Shown here: one piece after another, positions 40,181 to 58,343 of the stretch | Layout of the letters: every line of letters begins with the position of its first letter | How positions within the stretch are numbered: the stretch's first letter is position 1 | Assembly (NCBI GenBank): GCA_023230565.1 | Contig: JALNXD010000001.1 | Span: 1,075 to 65,074 of the forward strand | Source of the DNA: Syntrophales bacterium | GTDB lineage: Bacteria; Desulfobacterota; Syntrophia; Syntrophales; UBA2210 | DNA length: 64,000 nt | Reading direction: 5' to 3' | Made by a program: the position numbers and the translations under genes | The notes under the pieces: generated by a model | What the model saw: the letters and a program-made list of their open reading frames with translations, nothing else | Told to the model about the DNA's origin: nothing | The model's database searches: none

Positions 40181-40210
40181 GAAAAAGGGGCGTTATACAA
40201 TAACGCCCCT
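40181..40210 (-). terminator. Rho-independent terminator closing the transporter/CoA-transferase operon
   Basis: Perfect 10-bp stem (AGGGGCGTTA at 40186-40195 pairs with TAACGCCCCT at 40201-40210). On the minus strand it is followed by TTTTT (plus-strand AAAAA at 40182-40186). Located 31 nt after the binding-protein stop. Confidence 0.7.
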
Positions 40211-40240
40211 GCACAGATTCGGCAAAGATCATTCTGCCGC

Positions 40241-41602
40241 TTATCTCTTCCTCAGCTCGGCAGGATACACGTAATCGGCCGTCGATCCTACACCTTTGAA
40301 TTTGGGCTCATTCTCTACACATGAAGCACCCAGATATTGAATTTTTCCATTATTCTGGAATTGAGCTATCGGCTGGTAAAAAGCTCCGGGTATCGTTTTC
40401 GTCATCGGATCGGACAGATCAATTCTGACCTTTGAATGGAAATAGGGTTTCATTTTCTTCGTTTCGTACGCCATCTTGCCAAGCGAGTAAGTGGTTTCCG
40501 AAGTTTCCATTGCATTTATCAGTTTGTCTATATCGTCAATTCCACCGGCATTTTCAATAACCTTTTTAAAGAAGTAGATGTCGGCGTAGGCAAGGTGTAC
40601 GTGAATCTGGGTCGGAATATTCTTTTTCTTGGCCATCTGGACAAAGGGGATGGTCTTCTCGGTAAGCGGCAGTTCACATTCAGTAAATGATGAGATCACA
40701 CCGAGCGCTTTTCCACCCGTCATCGCCCAGAAATCAGATGTCTGGGCGACCCCGCCATAAAGATTGACGGGAATATCGCGTGCCGCAGATTCGGCCCATT
40801 GTTTAGTGAACGATTCGGTATCCGTAAACCATGAACTTATGTAGAGGATCACCTGGGCTTTTTTCATCGCGATCTGCTGCAGAAGAGGCATGTACATGGT
40901 TCCCCGGGGTTTGACCGCCTTGCTGTAGACAACGTCAATTCCATGTTTCTTCTCCAGAAGTTCTTCCCATGGCGGCATATTCAAATAGTCGATTCCCTCT
41001 CTCCACTGGGTCGTCCATGCAAGGTCTTCCCACAGAAACGCCATCCTCTTTAAATTAGGGAACATTTGAGGCCATGTTGTACCCCAGAAATAATTCATCT
41101 GAGGATAATGGGCCGGCTCAGGATCCCAGTCACGAAAACAGAATTTGTATTTATCGTATTCATCGAGCACCCTGCTGGTAAGTTCCGCCCCCATAGGTCC
41201 GTTAAATATCAGGATATGAGGATAATTTTTGAACATGGCTGCAGAATTTTCCTGAGCAGCAAGACAGATCTCAGTTCGCCCTTCGACTGAAATGAATTTC
41301 GCCTTATCTTCGATCAGCAGTCTCCGGGCACCTTCGACTGTAAGTGAGGTATCACCTTTATTATCGGCAACAATGTACTTTACCGGACGACCGAGAATAC
41401 CCCCTGCCTGATTTATCTCTTCTACGGCAATTTTCTGGATATCCATACAAGGTCTCGTTCCCGGTGAGAGTATCATTCCCACATACCCGATTACTATGGG
41501 CTCTCCTGTTGGAGGCGCGGCGGCAACCGGCGTAACAAGTGCCGGAATCGCAATTAGAAGAGCCGCAGTTACCAAAACTCCCAACATCAATCTTTTCTTC
41601 AT
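40241..41602 (-). CDS. ABC transporter periplasmic substrate-binding protein, Leu/Ile/Val-binding (Peripla_BP_6) fold
   Basis: Signal peptide MKKRLMLGVLVTAALLIAIPALVTPVAAA, then PIVIGYVG...EEINQAGGILGRPVKYIVADNKGD. Start moved to the ATG at 41602, behind the RBS GAAAGGAGGG; the track's GTG at 41620 lies inside that RBS. Confidence 0.85.
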   Translation of the reverse strand: MKKRLMLGVLVTAALLIAIPALVTPVAAAPPTGEPIVIGYVGMILSPGTRPCMDIQKIAVEEINQAGGILGRPVKYIVADNKGDTSLTVEGARRLLIEDKAKFISVEGRTEICLAAQENSAAMFKNYPHILIFNGPMGAELTSRVLDEYDKYKFCFRDWDPEPAHYPQMNYFWGTTWPQMFPNLKRMAFLWEDLAWTTQWREGIDYLNMPPWEELLEKKHGIDVVYSKAVKPRGTMYMPLLQQIAMKKAQVILYISSWFTDTESFTKQWAESAARDIPVNLYGGVAQTSDFWAMTGGKALGVISSFTECELPLTEKTIPFVQMAKKKNIPTQIHVHLAYADIYFFKKVIENAGGIDDIDKLINAMETSETTYSLGKMAYETKKMKPYFHSKVRIDLSDPMTKTIPGAFYQPIAQFQNNGKIQYLGASCVENEPKFKGVGSTADYVYPAELRKR

Positions 41603-41733
41603 ACCCTTCCCTCCTTTCACTATACGTGCACCTTCATCATTTTTTCCCTTTGTCCATATTGGACTCCAGGGCTCTTAAACAACAAAGACGGTATCGGAGA
41701 CGAATACCGCAGAACCAGCCTGGTTCGGCGTAT

Positions 41734-43074
41734 CTACAGGTATTTCGACTTCACATATTCGTTGTCCTTTCCTATTTCTACGGCAACCCATTTTACTTGA
41801 GGAGGAGATTCGGTCATCTTGACAAATCCGGATGTGATCATAAATTTCCCTATGCGTTCGTCCTCGATCTTTTTGAAAGATTTTCGTATTTCCCATTGCT
41901 TATTTTGCATCGTATTTTCCGGACTCATCACTCTCATTACTATGGGAACCCCTCCGCCCCTCCATTTGGATTTTGCGGCTTTCATGGCATAAGTAAGCGC
42001 TTTTGCAGTTAATTCATCAGCAGTATATTTCATGGTTTCCTTTTCGATCTCGCGATGAAGTTCCATTGCCATATCTATAATGTCAGGAATGCGATCAGGC
42101 GTATATTTGAAATCATCTTCCAGGTCCCAACGCCCCAAGATCTTGAGCAGAGCGCGAAAATCATGATCTCTCGGAGCAGCTATAGCGACAAGACCATCTT
42201 TGCACTTCCAGTGCCCGTATGGGTACAGAATAAAATCCAGCACACCGATCCGGGGCCTCGACTTCTCCCATGTAAACCCGATAGTGGCAGGAAATCCCGT
42301 CATAGATGAATACGCATCCATCCCGGCAATATCAATTATCTGACCTTCACCCGTTTTCCGCCGATGAATAATCGCCATCATTCCCCCTAATGCGGCACTG
42401 ATTCCGGATATGTACCAGCCCATCCACATACCAGCTTTTAGGGGCCAATTATAAGGTTCAGGTTCCGTTGGCAAATCGCCTATTTGTGCCGACAAGCCGG
42501 ATCCAGTCTGAGTTGTAATATCCGTATCCGGAAAGTTCACAAAGTTTTTCGCCTTTTCCGTATACTGCCCGTAGGCCGTTACGGCGATATATATCAATCC
42601 GGGATTTTGTACCGATAACTGCCTATATCCGATTCCCCAGGAATCCATTAAGCCCGCCGGATAGGTCTCGATAACAACGGATGCCTTCTGTGCCAGTTTT
42701 GCAAATATCTCGCGATCATCCGGACTGTTTTCAAGATCGAGCGTCATGTATTTCTTATTGCGGCCCTCCATGATAAAGGGAATACCTGTTCCGTTCACAT
42801 GTGTGCCAAAGGGAGTCATCTTCCTGCAGGGGTCCCCTTCGGCAGGTTCAATCTTTATTACCTCGGCTCCAAATTCGGCAAAAAGGCTCGCAGCGATAAT
42901 TCCGGAAAAATTCGCCGAGCTGGCATCAAGAATCAATACATCTTTCAATACTTCGGGGCGTCCCTCGGGTGTCATGAGTTTTTCCACCGTTTCTTTCCAA
43001 CGGGACACTCCGCCCCCGGCTGTAGAATATCTCGTATACACCCGTTCTTTGCTTTTTCTTTTGAACATGCTCAT
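41734..43074 (-). CDS. Family III CoA-transferase (CaiB/BaiF type), subunit 2
   Basis: LKDVLILDASSANFSGIIAASLFAEFGAEVIKIEPAEGDPCR is the family III N-terminal Rossmann signature. 446 aa. The start overlaps the upstream paralogue's stop by 4 nt. Confidence 0.85.
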   Translation of the reverse strand: MSMFKRKSKERVYTRYSTAGGGVSRWKETVEKLMTPEGRPEVLKDVLILDASSANFSGIIAASLFAEFGAEVIKIEPAEGDPCRKMTPFGTHVNGTGIPFIMEGRNKKYMTLDLENSPDDREIFAKLAQKASVVIETYPAGLMDSWGIGYRQLSVQNPGLIYIAVTAYGQYTEKAKNFVNFPDTDITTQTGSGLSAQIGDLPTEPEPYNWPLKAGMWMGWYISGISAALGGMMAIIHRRKTGEGQIIDIAGMDAYSSMTGFPATIGFTWEKSRPRIGVLDFILYPYGHWKCKDGLVAIAAPRDHDFRALLKILGRWDLEDDFKYTPDRIPDIIDMAMELHREIEKETMKYTADELTAKALTYAMKAAKSKWRGGGVPIVMRVMSPENTMQNKQWEIRKSFKKIEDERIGKFMITSGFVKMTESPPQVKWVAVEIGKDNEYVKSKYL

Positions 43075-44432
43075 TTTACAACCCCTCTGCCGTAATTAAA
43101 AATAGCATCTTTATCAAGATCGTAATAAATCGGCGGTTTCAAACCGGGTTTATCGTCATAGGTTCCTATGACTTTTTTCTTCTGGAGATCGTTTAAATCC
43201 TGCTCTGAGAGACCAAGGATTTTTTTCAGGATGAACCTGTTATGATATCCGAGCGGGCGCGCAAGCCATTTTGTACGTCCCGGGGTCTTGCTCAACCGCG
43301 CAGACGGTCCGGCAAGCGCAAGTTCCCCGTACATCTCATCTTTGAATAGAATGACACTTCCTCTTTCCCTTCTCCATTGATCGTAGCAGATTTGTTTATC
43401 GTCCATCACTTCGGCAGCGGCAAATCCCTTTTCCTGAGCTAAATTAACAATTTCGTCACAATCCATGGACGAAATCCAGTCAGCAACGATTTTTCTTAAA
43501 TCCGCAGCATTCTCCGGTTTAAGAGCTTCCATATAATCAGAAAATCGAGCATCCGACAACAGCTCTTCTTTTCCCATCGCTTTGCAAAGACCTTCAAAAT
43601 GTTTTTTCGTAGCACAGGCCAATCCGAGAAATTTTTCATCTTTTGTCTTAAACATCGAAGCCGCCATCATTGAGGGGTCTGTATGACCCGTCCTTCCAAG
43701 GCTTTCTCCTGTGAGACTTTGAAATGTAAAATGAGGAAGCACACGCATCATCGAATCGGTCTGAGACAGATCGAGATATTGGCCTTTGCCGGTTTCATTT
43801 TTATAGTAAAGTGCCATGAGCAGTACCAATGCTCCCAAATTTCCGGGAACAAAATCTCCCAGATAATCAGGAAGCTTGAAATATTTATCGGTTCCATCAA
43901 AACCATTGAGACTCAGAACTCCGCTTGCCGCCTGTGCAAGAAGATCCCAGCCCGGGAAATATCTCATCGGTCCGTACTGCCCGTATGTCGAGCAGCTGAG
44001 ATAAATTATTTCAGGATTTACTTCACTTATTTTTGAATAGCCTACCCCCCATGCCTCCGCTGTTCCCGGTGCAAAATTTTCAAGCACAATATCGGATACT
44101 TCCGCAAGGCGATAAATAAGATCTTTTGCCTCAGCCCGTTTTAAATCAACTGAGACGAAATATTTGTTTTGCGTAACAAAATGCCAAATTGGGTTCGAAT
44201 GCTTCCAGTATCTTCCCCAGTACGTTGCAGGCCGCCAGAGATCTCCGTAAAAAGGAAGTTCCAGCTTTATGACCTCGGCGCCGTAATTTGCAAGAACTCT
44301 CGATGCCGTAGGCCCGAAGATTACGTGAGTGAAATCGAGAACTCTAATCCCTTTTAGAACTTCAGGTTTCTCATTTACCTTTGACGGGTCGAACAGCTGT
44401 TCCATATACGAAAAATAATCTTGCATAATCAT
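43071..44432 (-). CDS. Family III CoA-transferase (CaiB/BaiF type), subunit 1
   Basis: LKGIRVLDFTHVIFGPTASRVLANYGAEVIKLELPFYGDLWR and GWDLLAQAASGV (catalytic Asp region). 453 aa. The start overlaps the ATPase gene's stop by 4 nt. Confidence 0.85.
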   Translation of the reverse strand: MIMQDYFSYMEQLFDPSKVNEKPEVLKGIRVLDFTHVIFGPTASRVLANYGAEVIKLELPFYGDLWRPATYWGRYWKHSNPIWHFVTQNKYFVSVDLKRAEAKDLIYRLAEVSDIVLENFAPGTAEAWGVGYSKISEVNPEIIYLSCSTYGQYGPMRYFPGWDLLAQAASGVLSLNGFDGTDKYFKLPDYLGDFVPGNLGALVLLMALYYKNETGKGQYLDLSQTDSMMRVLPHFTFQSLTGESLGRTGHTDPSMMAASMFKTKDEKFLGLACATKKHFEGLCKAMGKEELLSDARFSDYMEALKPENAADLRKIVADWISSMDCDEIVNLAQEKGFAAAEVMDDKQICYDQWRRERGSVILFKDEMYGELALAGPSARLSKTPGRTKWLARPLGYHNRFILKKILGLSEQDLNDLQKKKVIGTYDDKPGLKPPIYYDLDKDAIFNYGRGVVK

Positions 44433-45133
44433 CTCCCCAGGTATGCCTTCTTCACCAGATCACTCTTCATGAGGCCTTCGGATTTTCCCTCCATTATAAT
44501 TTTACCGTCCTGAATCACATATCCTCTGTCGGCAAGCTGGAGGGCTCTTAGAGCGTTTTGTTCCGGGAGAAGAATTGTAATGCCTTTTTCACGGAGCGTT
44601 TCCAGTGATTCGAAAAGGCTATCTACGATCACCGGCGCAAGTCCAACCGAAGGCTCATCAACCATAATGAATCGGGGATGCGACATGAGTCCGCGCCCGA
44701 TATTGAGCATCTGCTGTTCTCCACCTGATAATAATCGCGCCTGCTGGTTCGATCTCATTTTCAGAATAGGAAACAGATCCATCACCCATTCAGCGGAATC
44801 GTTTCTTTCTTTCCAGGATTGACCTGCATATGCGCCCAGATAGAGATTTTCTTTCACTGTCAAATATGGAAATACTCTATGCCCTTCGGGTATGTGAATC
44901 ACTCCTTCTTCGACAATTTTATGCGGTGGCAATCCCGTAATATCTTTTCCCTGAAAAAGTACTGCTCCCGATGTAGGCTTCATTATTCCTTGCACAGCAT
45001 TCAAAATTGTGCTTTTACCGGCCCCGTTGGACCCGAGGAGAGTCACTATTTCATCAGGATAGACATTAAAACTGACTTCATGCAGTACGGAAAGTGTTCC
45101 ATATGATGCACTCAGATTTTTTACTTCAAGCAT
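44429..45133 (-). CDS. ABC transporter ATP-binding protein, LivF type
   Basis: Walker A GSNGAGKST, signature LSGGEQQML, Walker B IMVDEPS. 234 aa. Confidence 0.9.
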   Translation of the reverse strand: MLEVKNLSASYGTLSVLHEVSFNVYPDEIVTLLGSNGAGKSTILNAVQGIMKPTSGAVLFQGKDITGLPPHKIVEEGVIHIPEGHRVFPYLTVKENLYLGAYAGQSWKERNDSAEWVMDLFPILKMRSNQQARLLSGGEQQMLNIGRGLMSHPRFIMVDEPSVGLAPVIVDSLFESLETLREKGITILLPEQNALRALQLADRGYVIQDGKIIMEGKSEGLMKSDLVKKAYLGR

Positions 45134-45872
45134 AATCCCTCCACCCCTTGCCTAAATACGCCTCAATTACCCTGTCGTTATTCACGACCTCATCGGGAGT
45201 TCCATCTGCAATTAATTGACCGTATAAAATAGCGATAATACGCTCAGCCGCTTCTACGAGCACCGCCATGACATGTTCGATCCAGAACACTGTAAGACCG
45301 AACTGCTCTTTCGCCCGGACGATCATATCAACTGCTTTTGTTGCTTCTCCCGGATTGAGTCCCGCCATAACTTCATCGATAAAGAGCAGCTTCGGAGTCG
45401 TGGCAAGTGCCCGGGCCAGTTCAAGCATCCTTAATTCATAAAATGTAAGATCTCTCGCAAGAATATTCCTTTTACTGAACAGTCCTACGAATTCCAGGTA
45501 GTGAGTCGCTTCCCCCGCAGCATCCTCAAAGCTTTGATTTACCCTCTTTTTTCCACACAATACCGCTACTATAACACTCATGAGTGCCGTCAGTTCGAGA
45601 AAAGGCCTCGGAATCTGGTATGTGCGCGCAAGTCCGAGACGGGCCCGCTCGTAAGGCTTTTTTCTTGTAATATCGATATCTTGCATGACAATCTTACCAG
45701 AATCTGCCGTAAGATATCCGCTCATCACGTTGACCATCGTCGATTTTCCGGCACCATTTGGACCTATAAACCCCAGTGTTTCCCCTTCTCTTATTTTAAA
45801 ACTTACATTATCAACCGCCGTCAGCCCGCCGAATTTCTTGGTTACGTTAGTTACGGTCAGAATATCAGCCAT
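45126..45872 (-). CDS. ABC transporter ATP-binding protein, LivG type
   Basis: Walker A GPNGAGKST, Walker B LLFIDEVMAGL, and the LivG-type C-terminal extension (VIEAYLG). Confidence 0.9.
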   Translation of the reverse strand: MADILTVTNVTKKFGGLTAVDNVSFKIREGETLGFIGPNGAGKSTMVNVMSGYLTADSGKIVMQDIDITRKKPYERARLGLARTYQIPRPFLELTALMSVIVAVLCGKKRVNQSFEDAAGEATHYLEFVGLFSKRNILARDLTFYELRMLELARALATTPKLLFIDEVMAGLNPGEATKAVDMIVRAKEQFGLTVFWIEHVMAVLVEAAERIIAILYGQLIADGTPDEVVNNDRVIEAYLGKGWRDYA

Positions 45873-45878
45873 CAGATT

Positions 45879-46925
45879 TTACCTCCTCACGTGAATTGTC
45901 GGCATATATTCCCGGTAATGACGTCTGCGATAAAGGCCGAAAAGTCCTTCTCCCCTTGGAAGGGCAAAAAGAAGTATCAAAAGTATTATCGGGAATGCAA
46001 CGGGCTGAAATTGACCCATCGTCCTTATGAGAATCATCTCAAGGAAGGCCACGAAATATCCGCCCACGACACATCCGAATACCTGTGCGCGGCCTCCTAC
46101 CATAAAAACCAAAAGAATTTTCAGCATGTATGTCATAGGAAGATAGGTTATACCGGCAAACGTTCCGAAATAATGCGCCAAAAACCATCCTACTATGCCT
46201 ATCATGCCCGAGGCGCATACGAAGGTAATGATTTTGGTTTTTGCGATATTTACCCCGAGACCATGGGCTACATCTTCGTCATCGTTGACTGTCGCCATGA
46301 TCAAACCGTATCGCGATTTCAGAACCTTATTCGTAATTAAAAGATAAAGAAGCATAATTCCTGCCGAAATGTAAGCAGCGGAAAGGAAATTCAGTTTTGC
46401 ATTCTCGAACTGAACCAGAAGCTCGATACCGAAAAGACCCACATCACCCTTAAAGATCCCGGTATAGATAAAGGTCACTTCGAGAAAAACAAGCGGAAGG
46501 AGCAAGGTCAGAAGCACATAATAAAGACCCCGAGCCATAATAACCAGCGGGCTGAAAATCACAGCTGCAAAAAGTGATAAAATAATTGCAAAAGGCAGTG
46601 TGGCAATTGGACCCCATCCGAGGTGAATGCTCAAAAGCGCCGCTGTATAACCTCCTATACCTACATAGAAGTTTGGGCCGAAATTGATCCTCCCGGTACC
46701 GACGGTCATAAGAGAAAGCGGTATCGCAATTGCCGCATAAATATTTGCCGCCACCATTGTATTGATAAGACCGGGACTCAAAAAATACGCAATAAGGGGA
46801 AAGAGAAGCAATCCTATAGTCCAGTACAGGGTGTTTCTCCAGTATCGCGGTTCAATCATCCAGTCCCATTTCTTCCCTCCGGCTCTTATGACAATGCGGT
46901 CTCTTTTTATCTCGACGTCTACCAT
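45879..46925 (-). CDS. ABC transporter permease, LivM type
   Basis: Polytopic membrane protein of the branched-chain-amino-acid-type permease family (GRINFGPNFYVGIGGYTAALL). Overlaps the upstream permease gene by 7 nt. Confidence 0.85.
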   Translation of the reverse strand: MVDVEIKRDRIVIRAGGKKWDWMIEPRYWRNTLYWTIGLLLFPLIAYFLSPGLINTMVAANIYAAIAIPLSLMTVGTGRINFGPNFYVGIGGYTAALLSIHLGWGPIATLPFAIILSLFAAVIFSPLVIMARGLYYVLLTLLLPLVFLEVTFIYTGIFKGDVGLFGIELLVQFENAKLNFLSAAYISAGIMLLYLLITNKVLKSRYGLIMATVNDDEDVAHGLGVNIAKTKIITFVCASGMIGIVGWFLAHYFGTFAGITYLPMTYMLKILLVFMVGGRAQVFGCVVGGYFVAFLEMILIRTMGQFQPVAFPIILLILLFALPRGEGLFGLYRRRHYREYMPTIHVRR

Positions 46926-47803
46926 AATGATTCACTCCTTGCGATTCCCTGGGGTCTTATCACTAAAATTACCATGACCAGTATCAGGGCCGATAGATTC
47001 ATGAACCTGGGTTCGCCTACTACAAAACACATAAATGCATGAGTAATTCCAATCATGAAACTCGCAATGATAGTACCTTTGATATTTCCAAGTCCTCCCA
47101 GAACGGCAATCAAAATTGCTATTATCATATATTGCCATCCCATTCCCGGCTCAACCGTCCAGACAGGAACGACAAGAAGCATGCCGACAATGACCGGAAT
47201 AAGCACCAGCATCATCGTAAGCGTATAAAGCTTTTCCACATTAATGCCAATAATCCTTGAACTCGGGATATCCTGAGAAAGGGCTCTTACCGCCAGACCG
47301 GATTTTGTTTTAATGAAAAAAAGAGCAAATAAGCCGGTCATTACAAGGGCAACAAGAGACCCAATTATCAATTGTTTGGGAATGACTGCAGGACCGATCT
47401 CCCAGATCCCCGAAAGAAGCGTGGTCTGAAGATAGACCCCTTCCTGTATTGGATACCGCCATGAAGCGGCCTGCTCGACAATAAGGGCAACAAGAAGAAG
47501 AGCCGTCAGAAGCGTCATCTCATCATCCCAGTATCGCCGTATCATGAACGTATAGATGAGGTAAGATACGATGAATTGTACAATTACCATCCCGATTATT
47601 GAAGGAATCAGGCTCAAGCCGAATTCTCTCATAAAAAACCATGTTCCGTAGACAGTGAGAGGAAACAGGTATGCATACCCGAGATGAAAAATCCTCAAGA
47701 CACCGCAGATAAGAGAAAATCCAAGCGCAACAAGCAGGTAAATTGCACCCATTACAAATCCGAAAATCAGAATAAACAAGACAGTGTCAACCATTAAGCC
47801 CAA
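46919..47803 (-). CDS. ABC transporter permease, LivH type
   Basis: Polytopic membrane protein (GAIYLLVALGFSLICGVLRIFHLGYAY). First gene of the transporter operon. Confidence 0.85.
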   Translation of the reverse strand: MGLMVDTVLFILIFGFVMGAIYLLVALGFSLICGVLRIFHLGYAYLFPLTVYGTWFFMREFGLSLIPSIIGMVIVQFIVSYLIYTFMIRRYWDDEMTLLTALLLVALIVEQAASWRYPIQEGVYLQTTLLSGIWEIGPAVIPKQLIIGSLVALVMTGLFALFFIKTKSGLAVRALSQDIPSSRIIGINVEKLYTLTMMLVLIPVIVGMLLVVPVWTVEPGMGWQYMIIAILIAVLGGLGNIKGTIIASFMIGITHAFMCFVVGEPRFMNLSALILVMVILVIRPQGIARSESLW

Positions 47804-48034
47804 CTCCTTTCTGGAGGTATTTCAAAATTCATTGCGGCTTAATCACATGCTCTTACGATTCTAACGATTAAGCCCGGGCGAATCGCCGTGTCCTGTCTGA
47901 TTACGCAATTTGCTATTTCTTTTAAGAGATCTCGACTGTAATACTCACTTATTTACTGAGGATTTAAAGGCAGGCAGCACAATATGGTTGCATTGGCAAC
48001 ACACTTTGCGCCGCATTTAAAAAGATGTTTGTTT

Positions 48035-48063
48035 TTATAACAAGTCTTGATCAGGGGTGTCAA
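48035..48063 (-). promoter_or_regulatory. Putative sigma70 promoter for the transporter/CoA-transferase operon
   Basis: Minus-strand TTGACA (48058-48063), a 17-nt spacer, then TTATAA (48035-48040). It would give a leader of roughly 225 nt before the ATG at 47803. Confidence 0.4.
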
Positions 48064-48209
48064 GCTAAAATTTAGAAAACGCTGAGTATATCTAAAAAGA
48101 CACGCACGAAAAACAGGCAAAAGTATTTTTTTCCTGTACTCTATTTTTTCAATTTAAAGTAAGGTATTGGAGAATCGATATTTTTAAAAGCAGATGCCTG
48201 AGAACTGAA

Positions 48210-48866
48210 TTATGTTTCCAGCGAAGTCAAGCCTTCCCGGATCGCATACTTGACCAGTTCCGATATGCTATGGATATTAAGCTTCTCCATGATATTGCGC
48301 CGGTGTGTCTCTACCGTCTTGACACTAATGTTAAGGTGGTAGGCGATCTTTTTTGTACTCATCCCCTCTGCGAGAATCTGGAGTATCTCCCGCTCGCGCG
48401 GTGTAAGATTCGTGAATACCGATGATTCGCTTCCTGGCGATTTACCGATATAACGGTTCACTACTATCCCGGCAATCGTAGGGCTGAGATAGATTTGATT
48501 CGACATAACTGAGCGGATCGCTCGCACCAGTTCCTCGAATGCACAATCTTTCAGCAAATATCCCGATGCACCCGCTTCAAGCATACCTGAAACGAATCGC
48601 CTGTCCGAATACATTGAAAGTGCAATAACTTTTACTTTCGGATTCTCACGAATAATCACTCGCGTCGCATCTATTCCGTTCATATCGGGCATTGCGATAT
48701 CCATAATGATTACATCCGGCGATAATTCATGCGCCAGGCGCACTGCGGAACGGCCATCCTCGGCCTCCGCAACTACTTCCATTCCGGGTTCGCTTCCGAT
48801 GAGCGTCCGCAGGCCATCCCGCACTATCTTATGATCTTCAGCCAATAATATTTTTGCATTACTCAT
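48210..48866 (-). CDS. Two-component response regulator, NarL/FixJ (LuxR-type HTH) family
   Basis: Receiver domain (ILLAEDHKIVRDGL...VIIMDIAMPDMNGI) plus LuxR HTH (LTPREREILQILAEGMSTKKIAYHLNISVKTVETHRRNI). Confidence 0.9.
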   Translation of the reverse strand: MSNAKILLAEDHKIVRDGLRTLIGSEPGMEVVAEAEDGRSAVRLAHELSPDVIIMDIAMPDMNGIDATRVIIRENPKVKVIALSMYSDRRFVSGMLEAGASGYLLKDCAFEELVRAIRSVMSNQIYLSPTIAGIVVNRYIGKSPGSESSVFTNLTPREREILQILAEGMSTKKIAYHLNISVKTVETHRRNIMEKLNIHSISELVKYAIREGLTSLET

Positions 48867-51109
48867 CTAACCTTCTCCTTATACTCACGACGCCCTGGAC
48901 GAGAGTACATTATCATCCTTGCCCTCGTCCCGTTTCCGGGCGACGATTCTATATTAAATTGCCCTCCCAGATAGCTTAAACGCTCTTTAATACTGAACAA
49001 GCCGAAACCCTTCGTCCAGTCTGCCGGAGTTTTTATCTTCCGGACATCAAAGCCTGCGCCATCATCTTCAACGCCGACTTCCACACTTTTTCCGTTTTTT
49101 TTCATCCATACCAATACATGCGTCGCATTGGCATGTTTCGTAATATTAACAAGTAGTTCCTGTACGCATCTGAAAAGGACAAAGGCTCTATCCTTTGTAA
49201 GGATTTCCTTGCTTGTCCCTTTTTTATTGAAGACTATCTCGAGACCGTATTTCTCCTGATGTTGTTCTGTGAGCCATTCCAGAGCTGCTTCAAGCCCCAG
49301 GATATAAAGTACCGGGGGACTTAAATCAAATGTAAGCGATCGCGTATCTGAAATCAGCTGGTCTAAGATATGAACAATTTCTTCCAGAGATTCCGAATAT
49401 TCTGTTGAAGCCGCGTCTTTCTGAAGGGCTTCCAGTTTCATCTTGGCTACGGCCATAGTCTGGCCGATCCGGTCGTGCAACTCAGTCGCAAGCTGCTGGC
49501 GCTCCCGTTCCTCGGTGCGTGTTAATTCGGAAGATAAGTACCGCAGCTTTTCGTAATTTTCAGAAAGTTTCTGTTCCGCCTCCTTCGTCTCTGTAACATC
49601 CTGCCCGATGAGAAGCAGTCCGACTAAGTCGCCGTTGCTGTCGCGAAGTGTCTTGTTTGACCAGCTTACCAGGCGTTTCGAACCGTTGCGGGCTATAATG
49701 GTATTCACCTGTTTTGCCTGCTTGTCTCTCAGAGCGTCTCCGAAACTTTTGATGGTTGCAGACCATTCTTCTCTGGGAATGAAATTTTTCAACCAATCTT
49801 TTCCTCTCATCTCCTCAAGCGCATATCCGACAAGCTCTTCCGTGTAAGGATTATACCGCACGATCAGTCCCTGAGTGTCCAGAACAAGAACAACAGCCTG
49901 AGCCGTCTCGATTAAACTCTCGGCAAAATCCCGCTCACGGACCAGCGCACGTTCCGCCTGGCGCCGTTCTGTTATATCTTCATATACCGCAACCGCTTTC
50001 CTGCTTCTCGTGTTTGTACCGAGTTTCGATGCCGTAAAGGAACATAAAATTTCTCTGCCGTCACGACATTGGCAGTGCATCTCGTCAATGCAGATTTTTC
50101 TTTTTCTACGCTGATCGTAAAGAGCCTTGCCGGTTTGCTCATACTCGGAGTCACTTCCATATAATATACGGCTGTTTTTTCCTATCAATTCCTCAGGTTT
50201 CCAGCCGAAAACCTGTTGTGCGGCATTATTGGCAAAAATGATCCTCCTGTTTTCCAACCCTATAACTGCATGGGGAATAGTCTCGAGGATAGATGATTCC
50301 AGTGCTTCGATCTCTTCCAGCTTTTCCCTGGCTTCCCGAAGTTCAGTCACATCCATTGAATTGCCGAGAATTGCGGGTCTTCCCTCATAATAAATAGGTG
50401 ACACGACTCCCATCATCCGGCGTATCCGCCCATCTTTAGTGATGATTCTGTACTCATACGGCGAAGTGACTTCGCCTCTGAGCATTTTCCCCGCATGCTC
50501 TCGAACTTTCTTTCGATCCCGTGGGTGGACCATCACCATTCCGTTTTGTCCTATGACCTCACTTCTCCTGTATCCTGCATATGCTTCCACCATTGAGTTT
50601 ACAAAGCGGATTTTTCCATCTTGAACAATATAGACGCCTGCCTGCATCTTATCTGTCAGAATGCGGTAGAGTTCTTCCGCCCTTTTTCTTTCGGTGATGT
50701 CCCTGAATGACGTTATACGGATCGTTTTACCTTCGAAGGCTACATTTTTACCTTGAACTTCCATAGGAAATGTAGATCCATCTTTTCTTAACGCAAGCAC
50801 TTCATATGGCTTTTCAAATCCTTCCTTTACTTGTGAACGTACAATGCTTCGATATTCCGGAGCAATAAGGTTAATCACATTCATGCTCTTGAGTTCATCG
50901 GGTGAATATCCTGTTATATCTGACAGCACATTATTGGCATCCAGAAGGCACCCTTCGGCATGAATGCAGATCCCTTCGAAAGAAGGAAAATGAAATCGAT
51001 TGAATACATTCTTTCGGCCCAGCATTTTCGTGAGTGCGCCATCAATTCCCCCATCTGACTTTGTATCGGTTTGAACCTCTAAATCAGCTTTCGCTGCCTT
51101 ACGGGTCAT
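48863..51109 (-). CDS. Cytoplasmic multi-PAS sensor histidine kinase (HisKA_3 / NarX-type transmitter)
   Basis: Several PAS/PAC repeats (each ending ...DITERKRAEE / DVTELREAREKLE / DITERRQAERAL / DVTETKEAEQKL). H-box ELHDRIGQ and HATPase_c (EDDGAGF...GFGLFSIKERL...GNGT). I see no hydrophobic TM segment. Confidence 0.9.
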   Translation of the reverse strand: MTRKAAKADLEVQTDTKSDGGIDGALTKMLGRKNVFNRFHFPSFEGICIHAEGCLLDANNVLSDITGYSPDELKSMNVINLIAPEYRSIVRSQVKEGFEKPYEVLALRKDGSTFPMEVQGKNVAFEGKTIRITSFRDITERKRAEELYRILTDKMQAGVYIVQDGKIRFVNSMVEAYAGYRRSEVIGQNGMVMVHPRDRKKVREHAGKMLRGEVTSPYEYRIITKDGRIRRMMGVVSPIYYEGRPAILGNSMDVTELREAREKLEEIEALESSILETIPHAVIGLENRRIIFANNAAQQVFGWKPEELIGKNSRILYGSDSEYEQTGKALYDQRRKRKICIDEMHCQCRDGREILCSFTASKLGTNTRSRKAVAVYEDITERRQAERALVRERDFAESLIETAQAVVLVLDTQGLIVRYNPYTEELVGYALEEMRGKDWLKNFIPREEWSATIKSFGDALRDKQAKQVNTIIARNGSKRLVSWSNKTLRDSNGDLVGLLLIGQDVTETKEAEQKLSENYEKLRYLSSELTRTEERERQQLATELHDRIGQTMAVAKMKLEALQKDAASTEYSESLEEIVHILDQLISDTRSLTFDLSPPVLYILGLEAALEWLTEQHQEKYGLEIVFNKKGTSKEILTKDRAFVLFRCVQELLVNITKHANATHVLVWMKKNGKSVEVGVEDDGAGFDVRKIKTPADWTKGFGLFSIKERLSYLGGQFNIESSPGNGTRARMIMYSRPGRREYKEKVR

Positions 51110-51260
51110 TCAAAACTCCTGATTTCTACTGGCACAAGGCATCATACTCCCTGTGTTTTACGTTCTCCATCTTGAGCAGTCAAGAACCAGCAATCGGCGA
51201 AAATGTACGGTTATTTCCAGTATCCATTTACGCGGGAAACGCATGTTGGCTTAACAAAGG

Positions 51261-52469
51261 TTAAACTCCTGGAAGCCCTACAATTCCGACGAAAATAGCA
51301 CACCCGTCGGGGCTTCCTCCCAAATTGTGCGTAAGCCCGAGTTTGGGGTTGGCAAGCTGTCTTGAAGGAAAGCCCGGGTTGAGCAGTTCATCCGCCCTCC
51401 CCTGAAGCTGCAAATACATTTCATACAACATGCGCAATCCGCTTGCCCCTATTGGATGCCCGAAACACTTTAACCCTCCGTCAAGTTGTACCGGCAATCC
51501 TCCGTCAAGATCAAAAAAGCCATTTTCGATATCGTCTCTGACCTTTCCACGGGGACTGAATCTGAGGTCTTCCATCGTAACGGCTTCAGTGATGGAAAAA
51601 CAATCATGAACTTCTGCCATGCTGATTTCCTCACGCGGGTTTTTAATACCCGCTTCCTTATATGCAGCTTCCGCAGCTCTTACTGTCGCTTCAACGTGCA
51701 GGAAATCATAGTTGGTATTGAAATTGCCATCTCGGGGCGCCATTGAAATTTGCAGCGCCTTTACATACACAGGGTCTTTCCTCATGCTCTGAGCTATTTC
51801 AGGTGTAGTAATAATCGCCGCTGCCGCTCCATCGCTTACTCCGCAACAATCAAATAAACCGAGCGGCCAGGCAACCATAGGAGCATTGAGAATCGTATCC
51901 ATACTGACATCTTTCTGGAAATGAGCGTTTTTGTTACGCATACCATTTTGATGGCTTTTCCATGACACTCGCCCTATCATGTGTTTGCCTTCTTCGAAAC
52001 TAAGCCCGTATTTTGAAAAATATGTAGTTGCAAGCATGGCGAACTGCCTCGGAGGCGTGCTTTCTGCCTCCATGGCATGCGAAGGTCCAGGTGCACCACC
52101 ATCACCCAAACCGCTGATTCCGCTATCTTTGAATTTGTCGACCCCGACGGCAAGTACCATATCGTAAATGCCGGCAGCCACGGCATAACAAGCATTCCTG
52201 AATGCATCAGAGGCAGTTGCGCAGGCATTCTCAACCCTTGTAACTGGAATGTATTGAAGCCTCAGAGGCTCGGAGAGAACCATTCCTGTCATGCCGGTTG
52301 CTGTTCCCAGCCAGGCCGCCTGAATATCTTTGGTTTCGATTCCGGCATCTTCGTAAGCCTGATAGACCGCCTCTACTATCATGTCGGCGGCACTGACATC
52401 CCAGCGTTCACCGAATCTTGTGCAACCCATTCCCACAATGGCTACCCTGTCCTTAATACTTCCTGGCAT
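51261..52469 (-). CDS. Thiolase, SCP-x/archaeal type (thiolase-domain protein)
   Basis: VAIVGMGCTRFGE, active-site Cys in VENACATASDA, and C-terminal GHPIGASG and NLGGS motifs. 402 aa. Confidence 0.85.
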   Translation of the reverse strand: MPGSIKDRVAIVGMGCTRFGERWDVSAADMIVEAVYQAYEDAGIETKDIQAAWLGTATGMTGMVLSEPLRLQYIPVTRVENACATASDAFRNACYAVAAGIYDMVLAVGVDKFKDSGISGLGDGGAPGPSHAMEAESTPPRQFAMLATTYFSKYGLSFEEGKHMIGRVSWKSHQNGMRNKNAHFQKDVSMDTILNAPMVAWPLGLFDCCGVSDGAAAAIITTPEIAQSMRKDPVYVKALQISMAPRDGNFNTNYDFLHVEATVRAAEAAYKEAGIKNPREEISMAEVHDCFSITEAVTMEDLRFSPRGKVRDDIENGFFDLDGGLPVQLDGGLKCFGHPIGASGLRMLYEMYLQLQGRADELLNPGFPSRQLANPKLGLTHNLGGSPDGCAIFVGIVGLPGV

Positions 52470-52488
52470 ATTCGGACCTCCTTTGCTG

Positions 52489-53925
52489 TTAATCTCTCAC
52501 CGGCTTACACTTCCAGAAATAGGTATGTGTGCCTTGAGTATATTGCAATTTTCTGAAAGTCATTTCCACTTTCATCCCAACACTGCATTCATCTGGCTCA
52601 CGGTCTACCATATTAAACTGGCCGCGGCCTCCCCCTTCAAAATCAATGACTGCCGCTGTTGTAGGCGGATCGGTGCCGGCCGCAAGAAAATCATGACTGA
52701 AGCTGGCTACCTGCCCCCTTCTGTTTGCAAAGCGGTATGGTTCAAATTCATCTTTTCGGCCACAATTAAGACAAATTCGCGCTCGAGTAGAGGAGGAACT
52801 GAGGTAAAGCTGAGGAGTGCCGCAATTTTTGCACTTCACCCCGTAAAGCGGCAGTGCCGTAGAATGCTCTCTCCATTGTGCCGACATTGAAGCGGCTCCC
52901 GCCGGGGGGCGTGGCGGAGGTGCTATGTCCACCATATCGCGCCATCTCAGATATCTTCCATAATTATCTAATGTTTTTTTGATCTTGAGGTGTCTTTTTA
53001 TTCCTCTTCTACCTCTGATGTTATCGATTTCTTCATTTACCCTGAATATTATGGCATCACTCCCATTGCCCCAACTTACCAGTAAAATCCGATCACCCGG
53101 CTTTGCATCCTCAAGCGCGCCTATCAGAATCATCAAAGGCTGTGCCGTACCGGTATTCCCCACATCTGCGAGCAATGGATCCTGTATTTGCTCCTTGCTG
53201 AATCCCATTTTTGCGGCCAGCGCCGCATGGCTCCTCAAATTTGCTCCGCAAAGACATAACCTGGAAATGTCTTCTTTTTTGAGTCCGCATTTCTTCATCG
53301 CCCCGGCAGCAGCCTCGACAGGTAATCTCATATAACCCTCTTCTCTGCCGAATCGATCTTCCCAATGCCGCACATAAGTATCCTCGTGCGATCTCCAGTA
53401 GTCCGCCAGGTCTTCAGACAAGCAGTGATATGCTTCTATTTCAACAGCAACATTATTACTGCCAAAGAGCAACGCACCACTTCCATCTCCAAAGTCCTGC
53501 TCATCCTCACCAGCCGCTCCTGCAAGCCGCATGTCGGCAGCAGTAACAAGAACCGATTTGAGTGTACCTGCCTCTACAGAATCAAGAGCAGCCATAATAG
53601 CATTTGTTCCGGCTCTCAAACAGTTTGCAAAGTCTGTATTCCTGGCCGCTTGGGGAAGATCGAGCGCTGTTGCCACAATCGTTGAATTTTGCCGCTCTTT
53701 GTAGGGCGCACAGGTTGTTGCAAGGAAAAGCGCTTCGACTGTTCTAGGATCCACGTCTCTCAAACAGTCTAATCCTGCGGCAACAGACATCGTGATAGGG
53801 TCTTCATCAAAACCGGCCACTGCCTTCTCCCCGCGTCCCCCTTTCGCATCCCACATTTTTCCGATTGCAGCCCGGGGCAGTCTGTAGTATGGGATATACG
53901 CTCCGTATGATATTATTCCTGCCAT
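52489..53925 (-). CDS. HMG-CoA-synthase-like condensing enzyme fused to a C-terminal DUF35 (zinc-ribbon + OB-fold) domain
   Basis: N-terminal ~340 aa are HMGCS-like (IISYGAYIPYYRL, Cys in DFANCLRAGTNA, VGNTGTAQ). The C-terminal ~125 aa hold the zinc ribbon CKNCG...CLNCG and an OB-fold segment (VASFSHD...VIDFEGGGRGQFNMVD...VGMKVEMTF). Confidence 0.8.
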   Translation of the reverse strand: MAGIISYGAYIPYYRLPRAAIGKMWDAKGGRGEKAVAGFDEDPITMSVAAGLDCLRDVDPRTVEALFLATTCAPYKERQNSTIVATALDLPQAARNTDFANCLRAGTNAIMAALDSVEAGTLKSVLVTAADMRLAGAAGEDEQDFGDGSGALLFGSNNVAVEIEAYHCLSEDLADYWRSHEDTYVRHWEDRFGREEGYMRLPVEAAAGAMKKCGLKKEDISRLCLCGANLRSHAALAAKMGFSKEQIQDPLLADVGNTGTAQPLMILIGALEDAKPGDRILLVSWGNGSDAIIFRVNEEIDNIRGRRGIKRHLKIKKTLDNYGRYLRWRDMVDIAPPPRPPAGAASMSAQWREHSTALPLYGVKCKNCGTPQLYLSSSSTRARICLNCGRKDEFEPYRFANRRGQVASFSHDFLAAGTDPPTTAAVIDFEGGGRGQFNMVDREPDECSVGMKVEMTFRKLQYTQGTHTYFWKCKPVRD

Positions 53926-54068
53926 TTTTCCTCCTTTTCCATTAAGAAAATTGTTGGTATACCAGATTGAACATACATCTTCGGACTATTTTTACTTTGC
54001 ATTGCTTCATCCGCCAACGACCGGCCGACTGCATATTCGAGGGAATTATTTCTTTCAAACAGGCGAAA

Positions 54069-54097
54069 TATATAACAAGAACATTATAAAGTGTCAA
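54069..54097 (-). promoter_or_regulatory. Putative sigma70 promoter for the HMGCS-DUF35/thiolase operon
   Basis: Minus-strand TTGACA (54092-54097), a 17-nt spacer, then TATATA (54069-54074), about 140 nt upstream of the ATG at 53925. Confidence 0.45.
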
Positions 54098-54518
54098 CAT
54101 TCTTTGGTTGTTGTGTTGCTGAGTGCCATGACCTGCCGGGCGCATATGTCTGAGCTGCCGCGCGCGAGTGTGCCGGGAACGCTTCACGAGATGCTGCATG
54201 GTCGGAAAACAGATCTGAACGGGCAATCTCATGCCCGTAATTGGAAAGTCAATACGCTCTCGCATCACTTACTTAGAAGCTCCAGAGGCAAGGCGCGCGA
54301 ATCACGGAGAATGAGGCATATGTCGAGGTACTCCGCAGTTACGAAGGATTATGCATAATGCAGCATCGGACTTTTACAAAAGCTTTAACGTTAATGGGCA
54401 AAGGTATTGCCTTTCAATCCCTGGCGTATTTGTGCTTTCTTAATGAGAGTCTCTTTTTAAATTGATCTTATTATGATATAGAATATTCCATCACCAATTT
54501 GAGAGGAGGTGAATCAGC

Positions 54519-56589: not shown

Positions 56590-57045
56590 TTACAGGCTAT
56601 AAATCTTTTTACCCGGCAAAATTACGAAACCATTTTCCTGCAGTGCGGCGATCGCCTCTTCCGTGCGGTCAAACCTGAATATAATAATGGCATTTTCCCC
56701 GCTTCTTTCAACGAAAGCGTAAGTATATTCTATATTAATACCTTTCCGGGAAAGAGTTTCAACGATACTGTGAAGTCCCCCTGGCCTATCAGGAATCTCG
56801 ACTGCTACCACGAATGAGCGACGAACAGTAAACCCTTCATCTTGAAGACTTTTTTCAGCCCGCTCCGTATCGTTGACGATAAGTCTCAAGATACCGAAAT
56901 CTGAAGTATCTGCAAGTGACAATGCACGGATATTGATATTAGCATTTTTAAGAACTCTCGTTACATACTCGAGCCCTCCCGGCTTATTTTCCAGAAATAT
57001 TGAAATTTGTTCTACTTTCATATCTTCCTCCCGGTCAATTTTCAA
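56590..57045 (-). CDS. ACT-domain protein (tandem ACT), partner of the aryl-CoA ligase
   Basis: Two ACT-like beta-alpha-beta-beta-alpha-beta units ([15 protein letters not shown]...; [12 protein letters not shown]...). The start overlaps the PaaK stop by 4 nt. Confidence 0.75.
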
Positions 57046-58343
57046 ATCCGGCGCTTGTCAATTACACGCTGGGCCTTCCCTTCAAAACGCTCCAGAGTTT
57101 TTGCTTCCACTAGTTTGACCGCCGCTGTCACACCAAGATAATCTTTGATATCTTTTGTAATGCGCCTTTCAATTTGCTGAAGTCCCCTTACCTGGTCCGA
57201 AAATATCTTCTCACTGACTTCCACCCTTATTTCAAGGGTATCAAGAGTGCCCTCTCTTTCTACAATAAGCTGATAATGCGGTTCCAGTCCTTCTATCCCC
57301 AAAAGAACGCTTTCAATCTGCGATGGAAAGACATTGACCCCCCGGATGATCAGCATATCATCACTCCTTCCAGAAACTCTTGCCATCCTTGTAAGAGTTC
57401 TCCCGCACCGGCACGGTGTCCTTACAAGCTTCGACAAATCGCGTGTACGATACCTGATCAACGGGAAGGCCTCTTTCGTAAGTGTGGTAAATACCAATTC
57501 CCCTATTTCACCATTTTTTACCGGTGATCCGGTAGCTGGATTTATTGCCTCTACAATAAAATGATCTTCGAATACATGAAGGCCGCTTCTGCCTTCTTTG
57601 CATTCTATTGCAACACCGGGACCGATAATTTCCGACAGACCGTAAATATCCAGAGCTGTTATACCTAAACGCTCCTCTATTTCTTCCCTCATCTGCTCAC
57701 TCCAGGGTTCCGCACCCAGTATGCCTACTCTGAGCCTGAGTGATTTCATATCCACACCCATCTCTTCCCCTTGCTCTGCCAGATAAAGTGCATAAGAAGG
57801 AGTGCAGCATATAGCCGTAGGGCCAAAGTCCTGTAATATCAGGATCTGTTTTTTCGTACTTCCGCCTGACATTGGAATAACACTCGCACCAAGTCTCTCC
57901 GCTCCATAATGAGCACCCAGTCCTCCTGTAAACAGTCCATACCCGTAAGCATTATGAATGATGTCGTTCCTGGTGAGACCTGAAGCGACAAAAGATCGAG
58001 CCATTAAAACCGACCACGTATCAATATCTCTTTTCGTATATCCGACAACGGTGGGTTTTCCTGTTGTGCCCGATGATGCATGAAGCCTTATAACATTTCC
58101 CATTGGAACAGCGAAAAGCCCGAAAGGGTAATTATCCTGCAGGTCCTTCTTTGTTGTGAATGGAAGACGCCTGATATCATCGAGTGTCTTTATATCATCC
58201 GGCGTAACGCCGGCTTCGTCAAAGGCATTCCGGTAAAACCCTACTGTATGATACACCCGTTCAGCGACCTGCTGAAGTCTCTTCAATTGAAGTGCTTCCA
58301 GTGCCTCCCGCGGTAATGTTTCAAACTCCTCATCAAAAATCAT
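57042..58343 (-). CDS. paaK: Phenylacetate-CoA ligase family (PaaK-type aryl/arylalkyl-CoA ligase)
   Basis: [21 protein letters not shown] (AMP-binding P-loop), [11 protein letters not shown], and C-terminal [11 protein letters not shown]. 433 aa. Confidence 0.85.

Follow-up and report, generated by a model that had tools for sequence, protein, structure and literature searches.

Heteromeric family III coenzyme A (CoA) transferases are already known, as are Liv-type importers encoded beside CoA-activating enzymes in anaerobic degraders of aromatic and dicarboxylic acids. The subject of this report is a locus on the minus strand of a 64,000-nucleotide stretch of DNA from a Syntrophales bacterium (GenBank contig JALNXD010000001.1). 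This whole stretch is called the window below, and the locus lies at its positions 40,181 to 54,097. Seven of the genes, from 40241 to 47803, form a conserved cassette in which two family III CoA-transferase genes (A and B) are placed between the ATPase genes and the binding-protein gene of an ATP-binding cassette (ABC) importer. On balance, gene order and homology favour reading this cassette as an autonomous device for the uptake and activation of a carboxylic acid.

For the transferases, the nearest comparison is provided by two-gene enzymes of family III. BbsEF (benzylsuccinate), SmtAB (malate/citramalate) and the phthalate enzyme use succinyl-CoA as donor and dicarboxylates as acceptors. 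LssDE, the limonenylsuccinate enzyme, is a two-gene member of the family that likewise uses succinyl-CoA and dicarboxylates (PMC12583861). As in all these systems, transferases A and B are encoded by two adjacent, translationally coupled PF02515 paralogues of about 400-450 amino acids in an anaerobic host, and acids are presumably activated through CoA transfer at no cost in ATP. The cassette enzymes, however, are about 25-35% identical to these relatives and form a clade of their own. They are encoded inside an ABC importer operon instead of a beta-oxidation or decarboxylase operon, and the cassette is not accompanied by a fumarate-adding enzyme, UbiD decarboxylase or bbs-type genes.

The best solved matches of transferase A are SUGCT (succinyl-CoA:glutarate/hydroxymethylglutarate CoA-transferase, 9br6) and YfdE (4hl6), which was deposited as an uncharacterised protein and which we take to be an acetyl-CoA:oxalate CoA-transferase. 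Both are dicarboxylate-specific family III enzymes. These enzymes are homodimers encoded by single genes without linkage to a transporter, and the sequence match to them is weak.

For the importer, comparison can be made with the aromatic-acid binding proteins of Rhodopseudomonas palustris (4ey3, 4evs, 4f8j) and the transporters of pim clusters. These too combine two BPD_transp_2 permeases, LivG/F-type ATPases and a type I binding protein, and uptake is followed by thioesterification. The fold of the cassette's binding protein matches that of the R. palustris binders, but the sequences are 15-18% identical. The systems also differ in how the acid is activated. In known systems of this kind an AMP-forming ligase encoded beside the transporter does this, whereas the cassette has a transferase pair between its ATPase and binding-protein genes.

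Conservation of the seven-gene cassette

The locus consists of eleven co-directional open reading frames (ORFs), all on the minus strand. An earlier note on this DNA had reported these genes at the same coordinates, together with their domain content and five start/stop overlaps of 4-8 nt. ORF coordinates and domain searches agree with it on each of these points. The genes are divided by gaps of 151 nt and 406 nt, and the locus is more plausibly three units (40181-48063, 48210-51109 and 51261-53925) than a single pathway. The features of the cassette are as follows.

48035-48063, minus strand: cassette promoter, with TTGACA, an 18-nt spacer and the extended -10 element TGTTATAAA
46919-47803, minus strand: permease 1, LivH/UrtB-like (PF02653, 82.6 bits); first gene of the cassette
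45879-46925, minus strand: permease 2, LivM/UrtC-like (PF02653, 96.9 bits)
45126-45872, minus strand: LivG-like ABC ATPase (ABC_tran and BCA_ABC_TP_C, a LivG-specific C-terminal motif)
44429-45133, minus strand: LivF-like ABC ATPase (ABC_tran)
43071-44432, minus strand: family III CoA-transferase A, 453 amino acids (PF02515, 303 bits, profile positions 1-366)
41734-43074, minus strand: family III CoA-transferase B, 446 amino acids (PF02515, 250 bits, profile positions 1-366)
41688-41710, minus strand: terminator-like stem-loop with a U-rich tail, in the gap between transferase B and the binding protein
40241-41602, minus strand: type I binding protein (Peripla_BP_6, PF13458); last gene of the cassette. 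Its ORF spans 40241-41620, and the ATG at 41602 is the likelier start
40181-40210, minus strand: rho-independent terminator closing the cassette, with an 11-bp stem (-17.5 kcal/mol, z = -4.5) followed by U5

The distribution of the cassette was followed with a profile built from 26 close homologues of transferase A and scanned against one genome per bacterial and archaeal species. The scan gave 165 loci, of which the best 80 were inspected with 10 kb of flanking DNA on either side. Individual loci are referred to by L numbers, and synteny counts include only those loci whose contig leaves room for the check.

The order livH-livM-livG-livF-transferase A-transferase B-binding protein is the same in the 80 related loci. 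Transferase B directly follows transferase A in 73 of 73 loci, and livF precedes transferase A in 75 of 75. The four ABC genes are complete and in order in every locus that could be checked (61/61), and a binding-protein gene is found nearby in 59 of 69. Spacing is similarly regular. The most common distance is -7 nt between livH and livM (55 of 63 loci) and -8 nt between livG and livF (59 of 75). The junction of livF with transferase A measures +2, +3 or -4 nt in 66 of 78 loci, and that between the two transferases is -4 nt (ATGA) in 62 of 72. Only the binding-protein gene stands apart, at a median of about +70 nt from transferase B (42 measured).

De novo clustering of 1,171 ORFs from 81 loci and the window found no further gene family that travels with these seven. 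The exceptions are cases of lineage-restricted synteny, for example with enoyl-CoA hydratase, CstA, carboxylase subunits, MurJ, SerRS and Opp permeases. Gene-neighbourhood synteny thus supports the proposal, made from the window alone, that the Liv-type ABC genes, the two transferases and the binding protein are one functional unit. In several loci (L002, L010, L011, L012, L017, L020 and L068) the binding-protein gene is present in two or three tandem copies.

Hosts of the cassette belong to two phyla. They are found among Syntrophales/Smithellaceae, Desulfobacterales, Desulfomonilia and other Thermodesulfobacteriota, and among Dehalococcoidia, which have the binding-protein gene in inverted orientation. 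Copies from the latter show 59-64% identity and keep the same order, which suggests that the cassette was transferred between phyla as an intact unit.

Both transferases pass the PF02515 gathering cut-off (23.3) by a wide margin, which places them in family III, and the domain is full-length in each, as expected from the description of two CaiB/BaiF-type enzymes of about 450 amino acids embedded in the ABC operon. They are 29% identical to each other. Asp163 of transferase A, in the motif PGWDLLAQ, is invariant in 72 of 72 sequences. It aligns with Asp185 of transferase B, which is invariant in 69 of 69 and aligns in turn with the conserved Asp of 4ed9, formyl-CoA transferase (10uh), SUGCT and YfdE. 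This residue (Asp169 of formyl-CoA transferase) is presumably the catalytic one. Because the full domain and an invariant Asp at the position used by YfdE, SUGCT and formyl-CoA transferase are present in both, both enzymes look active. As in BbsEF, two different subunits are encoded by adjacent, overlapping genes, and by this analogy transferases A and B are probably the two subunits of one heteromeric enzyme.

Within their clade the transferases are at least 59% identical, whereas matches in the PDB and on 72,556 plasmids stay at or below about 35%. No characterised close homologue of transferase A was found on plasmids, phthalate clusters included, where all 1,365 matches were below 35% identity and none was informative. 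A C-terminal tail of about 50 residues extends past the Pfam domain of transferase A; it is conserved and clade-specific, with many invariant residues after position 420. The nearest solved structures are SUGCT (E 1.8e-46) and YfdE (E 4.3e-44), followed by a formyl-CoA transferase and the benzylsuccinate CoA-transferase subunits 9fn0_B (E 1.2e-37) and 9fn0_A (E 1.9e-23). Across the two cassette transferases, these benzylsuccinate subunits are distant matches (E 1e-37 to 1e-16), and no Bbs subunit model is among the NCBIfam matches of A or B. Mesaconate and glutarate enzymes are included among the curated models that match transferase A. The curated cut-offs for these relatives are missed by a wide margin; for instance, transferase A scores 149 bits against the NCBIfam succinate-glutarate enzyme, whose cut-off is 750.

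The importer has the composition of the HAAT family (TC 3.A.1.4), with two BPD_transp_2 permeases, LivG/LivF-type ATPases and a type I binding protein with a signal peptide. Its parts fall below every Liv and Urt equivalog cut-off (LivH 32 vs 379, LivM 23 vs 366, LivG 189 vs 362, LivF 252 vs 441), and the permeases score higher against Urt than against Liv models. The binding protein carries a Sec signal peptide ending in VAA/AP, so that the mature form would comprise residues 29-453, and is modelled by AlphaFold2 with a predicted local distance difference test (pLDDT) score of 91. Sequence searches against the PDB give weak matches only. In Foldseek the protein is about equally far from binders of leucine, urea, amides, fatty acids and aromatic acids, so its ligand class is not readable from sequence or fold. 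It forms a family of its own. Of the scored candidates, only 475 database proteins reach E <= 0.001, and a single variant is found on 130 contigs.

Transcription of the cassette can be outlined from conserved signals. A consensus promoter scan returned 22 sites against 23.2 +/- 5.1 expected, which is chance frequency, so consensus matches carry no weight by themselves. The two stronger promoters of the earlier note, at 48063-48035 and 54097-54069, do have their hexamers, but conservation gives real support to the first only. There the window and L002, L004, L005, L006, L008, L009 and L012 share the conserved block CTTGACAC-N17/18-TG(T/C)TATA. It stands about 230-300 nt upstream of livH in intergenic DNA that has otherwise diverged. 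With a promoter this far upstream, the transcript should begin with a long 5' leader, which measures some 230 nt in the window (47804-48034). Rfam searches of the leader at gathering and E-value thresholds gave no credible riboswitch, RNAalifold found no consensus pairs in seven leaders, and the single-sequence fold has z = -2.1. The only conserved part of the leader is the Shine-Dalgarno context GAATACCTCCAGAAAGGAGTTG, in which CUCC could pair with GGAG.

A different element is seen upstream of livH in Smithellaceae (L033, L036, L041, L045, L049, L058, L060, L062 and L065). Here a GC-rich hairpin with a U tract, for example GGTTCCCGG...CCGGGAAC TTTTC, lies about 70 nt before the gene; its stem is kept while its loop varies. 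It could be the terminator of an upstream operon, or an attenuator.

At the other end of the cassette, the strong terminator at 40181-40210 was confirmed. As a correction to the earlier note, it is not the only terminator-like site, because there is a second at 41710-41688, in the gap before the binding-protein gene. The hairpin that had been noticed after transferase B does exist, but taken alone it is weak, with z = -1.85 for the window. At this position, just past the end of transferase B, a stem-loop recurs in 52 loci (L036-L063, for example), with a median z of -1.8 and values below -2 in 21 of them. The sequences differ between clades: in Smithellaceae the stem-loop is GGATCAAAT-N11-ATTTGATC, and elsewhere it is CCGTTCC...GGGACGG or a long inverted repeat (L021, L026; z = -7 to -10). 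The stem-loop may set the level of binding-protein expression relative to the upstream genes.

The thiolase pair and the two-component system

Upstream of the cassette the locus contains two further gene pairs and one more promoter candidate.

52489-53925, minus strand: gene for a fusion protein with a domain like 3-hydroxy-3-methylglutaryl-CoA (HMG-CoA) synthase, HMGS, joined to DUF35 (ACP_syn_III_C, of the FabH/HMGS type, and DUF35 zinc-ribbon/OB-fold)
51261-52469, minus strand: SCP-x-type thiolase gene (SCP-x/archaeal-type domains)
48863-51109, minus strand: gene for a probably cytoplasmic sensor kinase (four PAS domains, HisKA_3 and HATPase)
48210-48866, minus strand: response regulator gene (Response_reg and GerE DNA-binding domain)
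54069-54097, minus strand: putative promoter of the thiolase pair, TTGACA-17-TATATA after TGT

The earlier note had placed all eleven genes in one pathway of import, CoA transfer and processing by the thiolase and HMGS-like-DUF35 proteins, under control of the PAS kinase and NarL-type regulator. It had also named a lack of conserved linkage in other genomes as an outcome that would speak against this pathway. For the thiolase half this is what was found: while the transferases, ABC genes and binding protein proved to be linked, none of the 80 inspected loci has an HMGS-like-DUF35 homologue in the 10 kb on either side of the cassette. These include the nearest relative, L002, which is 84% identical. 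Its flanks match those of the window (SIR2, kinase, regulator, cassette, M90 peptidase, isochorismatase and DUF1847), and a 211-residue protein and a short-chain dehydrogenase/reductase (SDR) occupy the position of the thiolase pair. The metagenome-assembled genome Zod_Metabat.402 carries the cassette on its contig 50 (L055) and the thiolase pair on contig 124 (L082).

The fusion protein, of 478 residues, belongs to a large, length-conserved family that is widespread in Chloroflexota and Thermodesulfobacteriota. In L082-L085 the fusion gene is always followed by the thiolase gene (402-405 codons). The two make up a widespread, independent cassette of their own, whose neighbours vary. They include AbfD/HpaB-like enzymes, 3-hydroxyacyl-CoA dehydrogenase, other thiolases, and TRAP (tripartite ATP-independent periplasmic) or Opp transporters.

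A single eleven-gene pathway is nevertheless not without arguments. The genes are adjacent and co-directional in the window, and an SCP-x thiolase is found near the cassette in four Dehalococcoidia loci (L071, L074, L076 and L077, and only these), a loose recurrence in a second phylum with distant enzymes of 27-31% identity. In two of these loci the thiolase is part of a bbs-like beta-oxidation cluster beside the cassette (L071, 14633-21329; L076, 2-5251). This cluster also encodes two extra family III transferases, an acyl-CoA dehydrogenase, a BadH-like SDR, an enoyl-CoA hydratase and a separate, BbsA-like DUF35 protein. Its genes fall below curated equivalog cut-offs, and the best model for the acyl-CoA dehydrogenase is the non-decarboxylating glutaryl-CoA dehydrogenase. 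With a small probability, the cluster keeps alive the idea that this type of thiolase processes the transferase product. Against the joint pathway stand the zero count for the fusion gene, its other contexts, the gaps between the units with a conserved promoter among them, and an HMGS-like domain that lacks catalytic Glu and His. Taken together, these make a pathway of all eleven genes quite unlikely.

The active site of the fusion protein was compared in an alignment with archaeal HMG-CoA synthase (6esq_I), PhlA and 18 family members. Glu82, Cys114, His238 and Asn270 of 6esq_I are listed as defining HMG-CoA synthases and are lost in PhlA and MucA (PMC12960953). In the fusion family, Glu82 is replaced by a nearly invariant Thr and His238 by Cys, Tyr or Thr. 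The counterpart of Cys114 is a Cys one residue off, or Ser in P0162 and P0185, and that of Asn270 is Asn or Asp. The fusion protein also scores below the HMG-CoA synthase cut-offs (PRK04262, 225.9 vs 244; TIGR00748, 178.6 vs 353). Since the catalytic Glu and His are replaced throughout the family, the domain is not an HMG-CoA synthase, and the label HMGCS of the earlier note has to be dropped. The same correction applies to a likely mis-annotation, in which the 478-residue fusion is called an HMG-CoA synthase even though it has no synthase active site.

The thiolase, by contrast, keeps its catalytic motifs. Aligned to 6esq_A (192 bits), it shows ENACATAS, VHDCFSI and FGHPIGASG, so that the Cys nucleophile, HDCF and GH are all retained. 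It passes the NCBIfam equivalog PRK06157, acetyl-CoA acetyltransferase (576 bits vs 403), and the BbsAB equivalog cut-offs are not reached (BbsB, 133.8 vs 750; BbsA, 20.6 vs 250).

An archaeal complex of thiolase, HMGS and DUF35 protein is the closest described counterpart of the pair. In both systems the three components are encoded together; the HMGS-like part of the window's protein matches 6esq_I and PhlA, and its DUF35 part matches 6esq_E. In the window, however, the HMGS-like and DUF35 parts are fused into one polypeptide. PhlA and MucA likewise lack the Glu and His of HMGS, but the window's thiolase has kept canonical motifs, unlike PhlC and MucB (PMC12960953). The loss of these residues in one partner, combined with canonical motifs in the other, argues that the pair is neither the archaeal HMG-CoA-forming complex nor a Friedel-Crafts acylase. 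The fusion protein is probably a non-catalytic scaffold-like partner of an active thiolase, and the complex most likely acts as an acetoacetyl-CoA or 3-oxoacyl-CoA thiolase.

The putative promoter at 54069-54097, which lacks conservation in L082-L085, shares the design TTGACAC...TGTTATA with the cassette promoter. At window positions 53926-53945, the ribosome-binding context AAAGGAGGAAAAATGGC(A/G) is nearly identical to that upstream of the fusion gene in L082, L084 and L085, although these family members are distant. A GTG-start ORF of 108 codons (53942-54268, minus strand) was considered as a third gene of the pair but is probably not a gene. It overlaps the putative promoter, has no Pfam match and lacks a counterpart in related loci, where the small ORFs next to the fusion gene show no similarity to it.

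The kinase and regulator form an overlapping pair of the NarL/HisKA_3 type, with HisKA_3 and HATPase domains in one protein and receiver and GerE domains in the other. No hydrophobic segment is visible by eye in the translated N-terminus of the kinase. The nearest curated models are MctS and MctR, both below cut-off (kinase 128 vs 700, regulator 200 vs 300).

The pair had been taken for the regulator of the whole locus. This holds in part, as linkage to the cassette is found in the closest relatives only, 4 of the 80 loci. A regulator orthologue (82-90% identity) lies directly upstream of livH in L002, L005, L006 and L008. The kinase adjoins it only in the window and L002; in L005, L006 and L008 it is about 7 kb away, beside a second NarL paralogue. 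Because the regulator gene is directly upstream of the cassette promoter in the window and these four loci, a regulatory link is plausible for this sub-clade and not in general. Here the kinase and regulator probably control the cassette promoter.

Some other genes of the window may be mentioned. Two genes for AMP-forming acyl-CoA ligases lie 3-6 kb upstream of the locus on the same strand. The first (57042-58343, minus strand) is PaaK-like with AMP-binding_C_2 and is syntenic in L005; the second (58412-60220, minus strand) is an AMP-binding gene of 602 codons. Divergent SIR2 and TANGO2 genes stand between them and the locus. Farther away, and unrelated to it, a gene at 6324-8234 (minus strand) encodes a 636-residue protein of unusual architecture, in which TPR repeats are combined with a Peripla_BP_6/LppC-like domain.

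Proposed mechanism and candidate substrates

If the cassette works as its parts suggest, the periplasmic type I binding protein would deliver an organic acid to the HAAT-family importer, with its two permeases and two ATPases. In the cytoplasm, transferase A/B would then convert the acid to its CoA thioester, which would trap it inside the cell. The CoA would be taken from a central acyl-CoA, most likely succinyl-CoA or acetyl-CoA, so that activation would carry no ATP cost. Because no dedicated downstream enzymes accompany the cassette, the product would be, or would become, an ordinary intermediate of the host, and it would pass into general beta-oxidation or benzoyl-CoA-type metabolism.

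Within this reading, a dicarboxylate is the leading guess for the substrate, though a tentative one. Candidates are C5-C7 or substituted dicarboxylates (glutarate, adipate, pimelate, succinate derivatives), with aromatic and alicyclic acids next. A dicarboxylate is favoured because the relatives of transferase A act on dicarboxylates, oxalate or formate, because of the analogy with the heteromeric enzymes, and because a bbs-like cluster adjoins the cassette in Dehalococcoidia.

Several observations weigh against an uptake-and-activation device of this kind, or against its proposed substrate. The synteny counts come from the best 80 of the 165 loci. Three near relatives (L005, L006 and L008) have no binding-protein gene beside the cassette. 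Both transferases keep the Asp, and each could instead be a homodimeric enzyme acting on a substrate of its own. The guess of a dicarboxylate is drawn from relatives of about 30% identity, all of them below curated cut-offs. In Foldseek the binding protein is 13-20% identical to leucine, urea, amide, fatty-acid, pyroglutamate and aromatic-acid binders alike, and its top match there, as in phmmer, is the Leu-bound protein 4n0q. Finally, an ABC importer that costs ATP fits oddly with energy-saving CoA transfer in low-energy syntrophs.

Other substrates can be proposed. One is a short-chain monocarboxylate (propionate, butyrate, crotonate, 3-hydroxybutyrate or acetoacetate), which would feed the adjacent acetoacetyl-CoA-type thiolase. 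The nearest models of the kinase and regulator, MctS/MctR, are regulators of monocarboxylate uptake, although below cut-off; the thiolase passes an acetyl-CoA acetyltransferase equivalog; and the pair is found elsewhere beside 3-hydroxyacyl-CoA dehydrogenase and AbfD/HpaB-like genes. The usual activators of short-chain acids, though, are transferases of family I, and linkage of the thiolase to the cassette is unique to the window's genome. An enoyl-CoA hydratase gene adjoins the cassette in 17 loci. It lies on the opposite strand and mostly within Smithellaceae, so this adjacency may reflect shared descent; a same-strand copy occurs in the Dehalococcoidia cluster of L071 and L076. The hosts do suit such a substrate, as Smithellaceae and Syntrophales degrade propionate, butyrate and long-chain fatty acids (PMC11225162). 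ATP-driven import would nevertheless be expensive for acids that yield a fraction of an ATP in syntrophy, and we regard this substrate class as unlikely.

The annotation itself points to amino acids. An importer of branched-chain or other amino acids might supply 2-hydroxy or 2-oxo acids derived from its cargo to the transferases, as HadA and FldA are supplied in Stickland-type fermentations. The Pfam and NCBIfam names of the ABC parts agree with this, as does the match to the Leu-bound 4n0q, and in five Smithellaceae loci a protein with an AsnC-type ligand domain is encoded after the binding-protein gene. Yet the ABC parts lie far under the Liv cut-offs, with permeases that favour Urt models, and the binding protein is remote from any solved binder. 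The nearest relatives of the transferases are dicarboxylate or oxalate enzymes, and no inspected locus has a linked aminotransferase, 2-hydroxyacyl-CoA dehydratase or dehydratase activator. An amino-acid system is thus improbable. Salvage of a scarce biosynthetic precursor, such as pimelate for conversion to pimeloyl-CoA in biotin synthesis, appears very improbable. A high-affinity ABC importer and the lack of linked catabolic genes would fit scavenging, and ABC import of pimelate is documented in beta-proteobacteria (PMC12543098). The inspected loci, however, show no consistently linked cofactor-biosynthesis genes, the tandem duplication of the binding-protein gene in several of them suggests a broadened range of nutrients, and seven genes with two transferases seem a heavy outlay for trace uptake.

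The uptake-and-activation device can also be imagined in a more integrated form, which is a long shot. The transferase pair might dock on the LivG/LivF ATPases and thioesterify the acid at the permease exit, a case of vectorial acylation that would resemble group translocation. Docking would be compatible with the constant placement of the transferase genes, between those for the ATPases and that for the binding protein, and with the near-zero spacing of livF and transferase A across two phyla. The conserved tail of transferase A and the apparent movement of the cassette as a unit would fit as well. If true, this would be a mechanism like group translocation for carboxylic acids that is based on an ABC importer.

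Significance for anaerobic carbon degraders

No description of this gene combination was found in the searchable literature. What is new is a distinct clade of transferases with a fixed place in a transporter operon, at near-zero spacing, and with it an autonomous, widespread unit of seven genes. Annotation everywhere calls the cassette a "branched-chain amino acid transporter" next to a "CaiB/BaiF family protein", and these are likely parts of one uptake-and-activation device.

Smithellaceae, other Syntrophales and non-dehalogenating Dehalococcoidia are key carbon degraders, mostly uncultured, in digesters, peat, aquifers and sediments. The substrates that these anaerobes take up are largely guessed from annotation, and the ligand of the cassette would name a substrate niche for them. 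Once found, it would also extend the family III CoA-transferases by a clade that is linked to a transporter.

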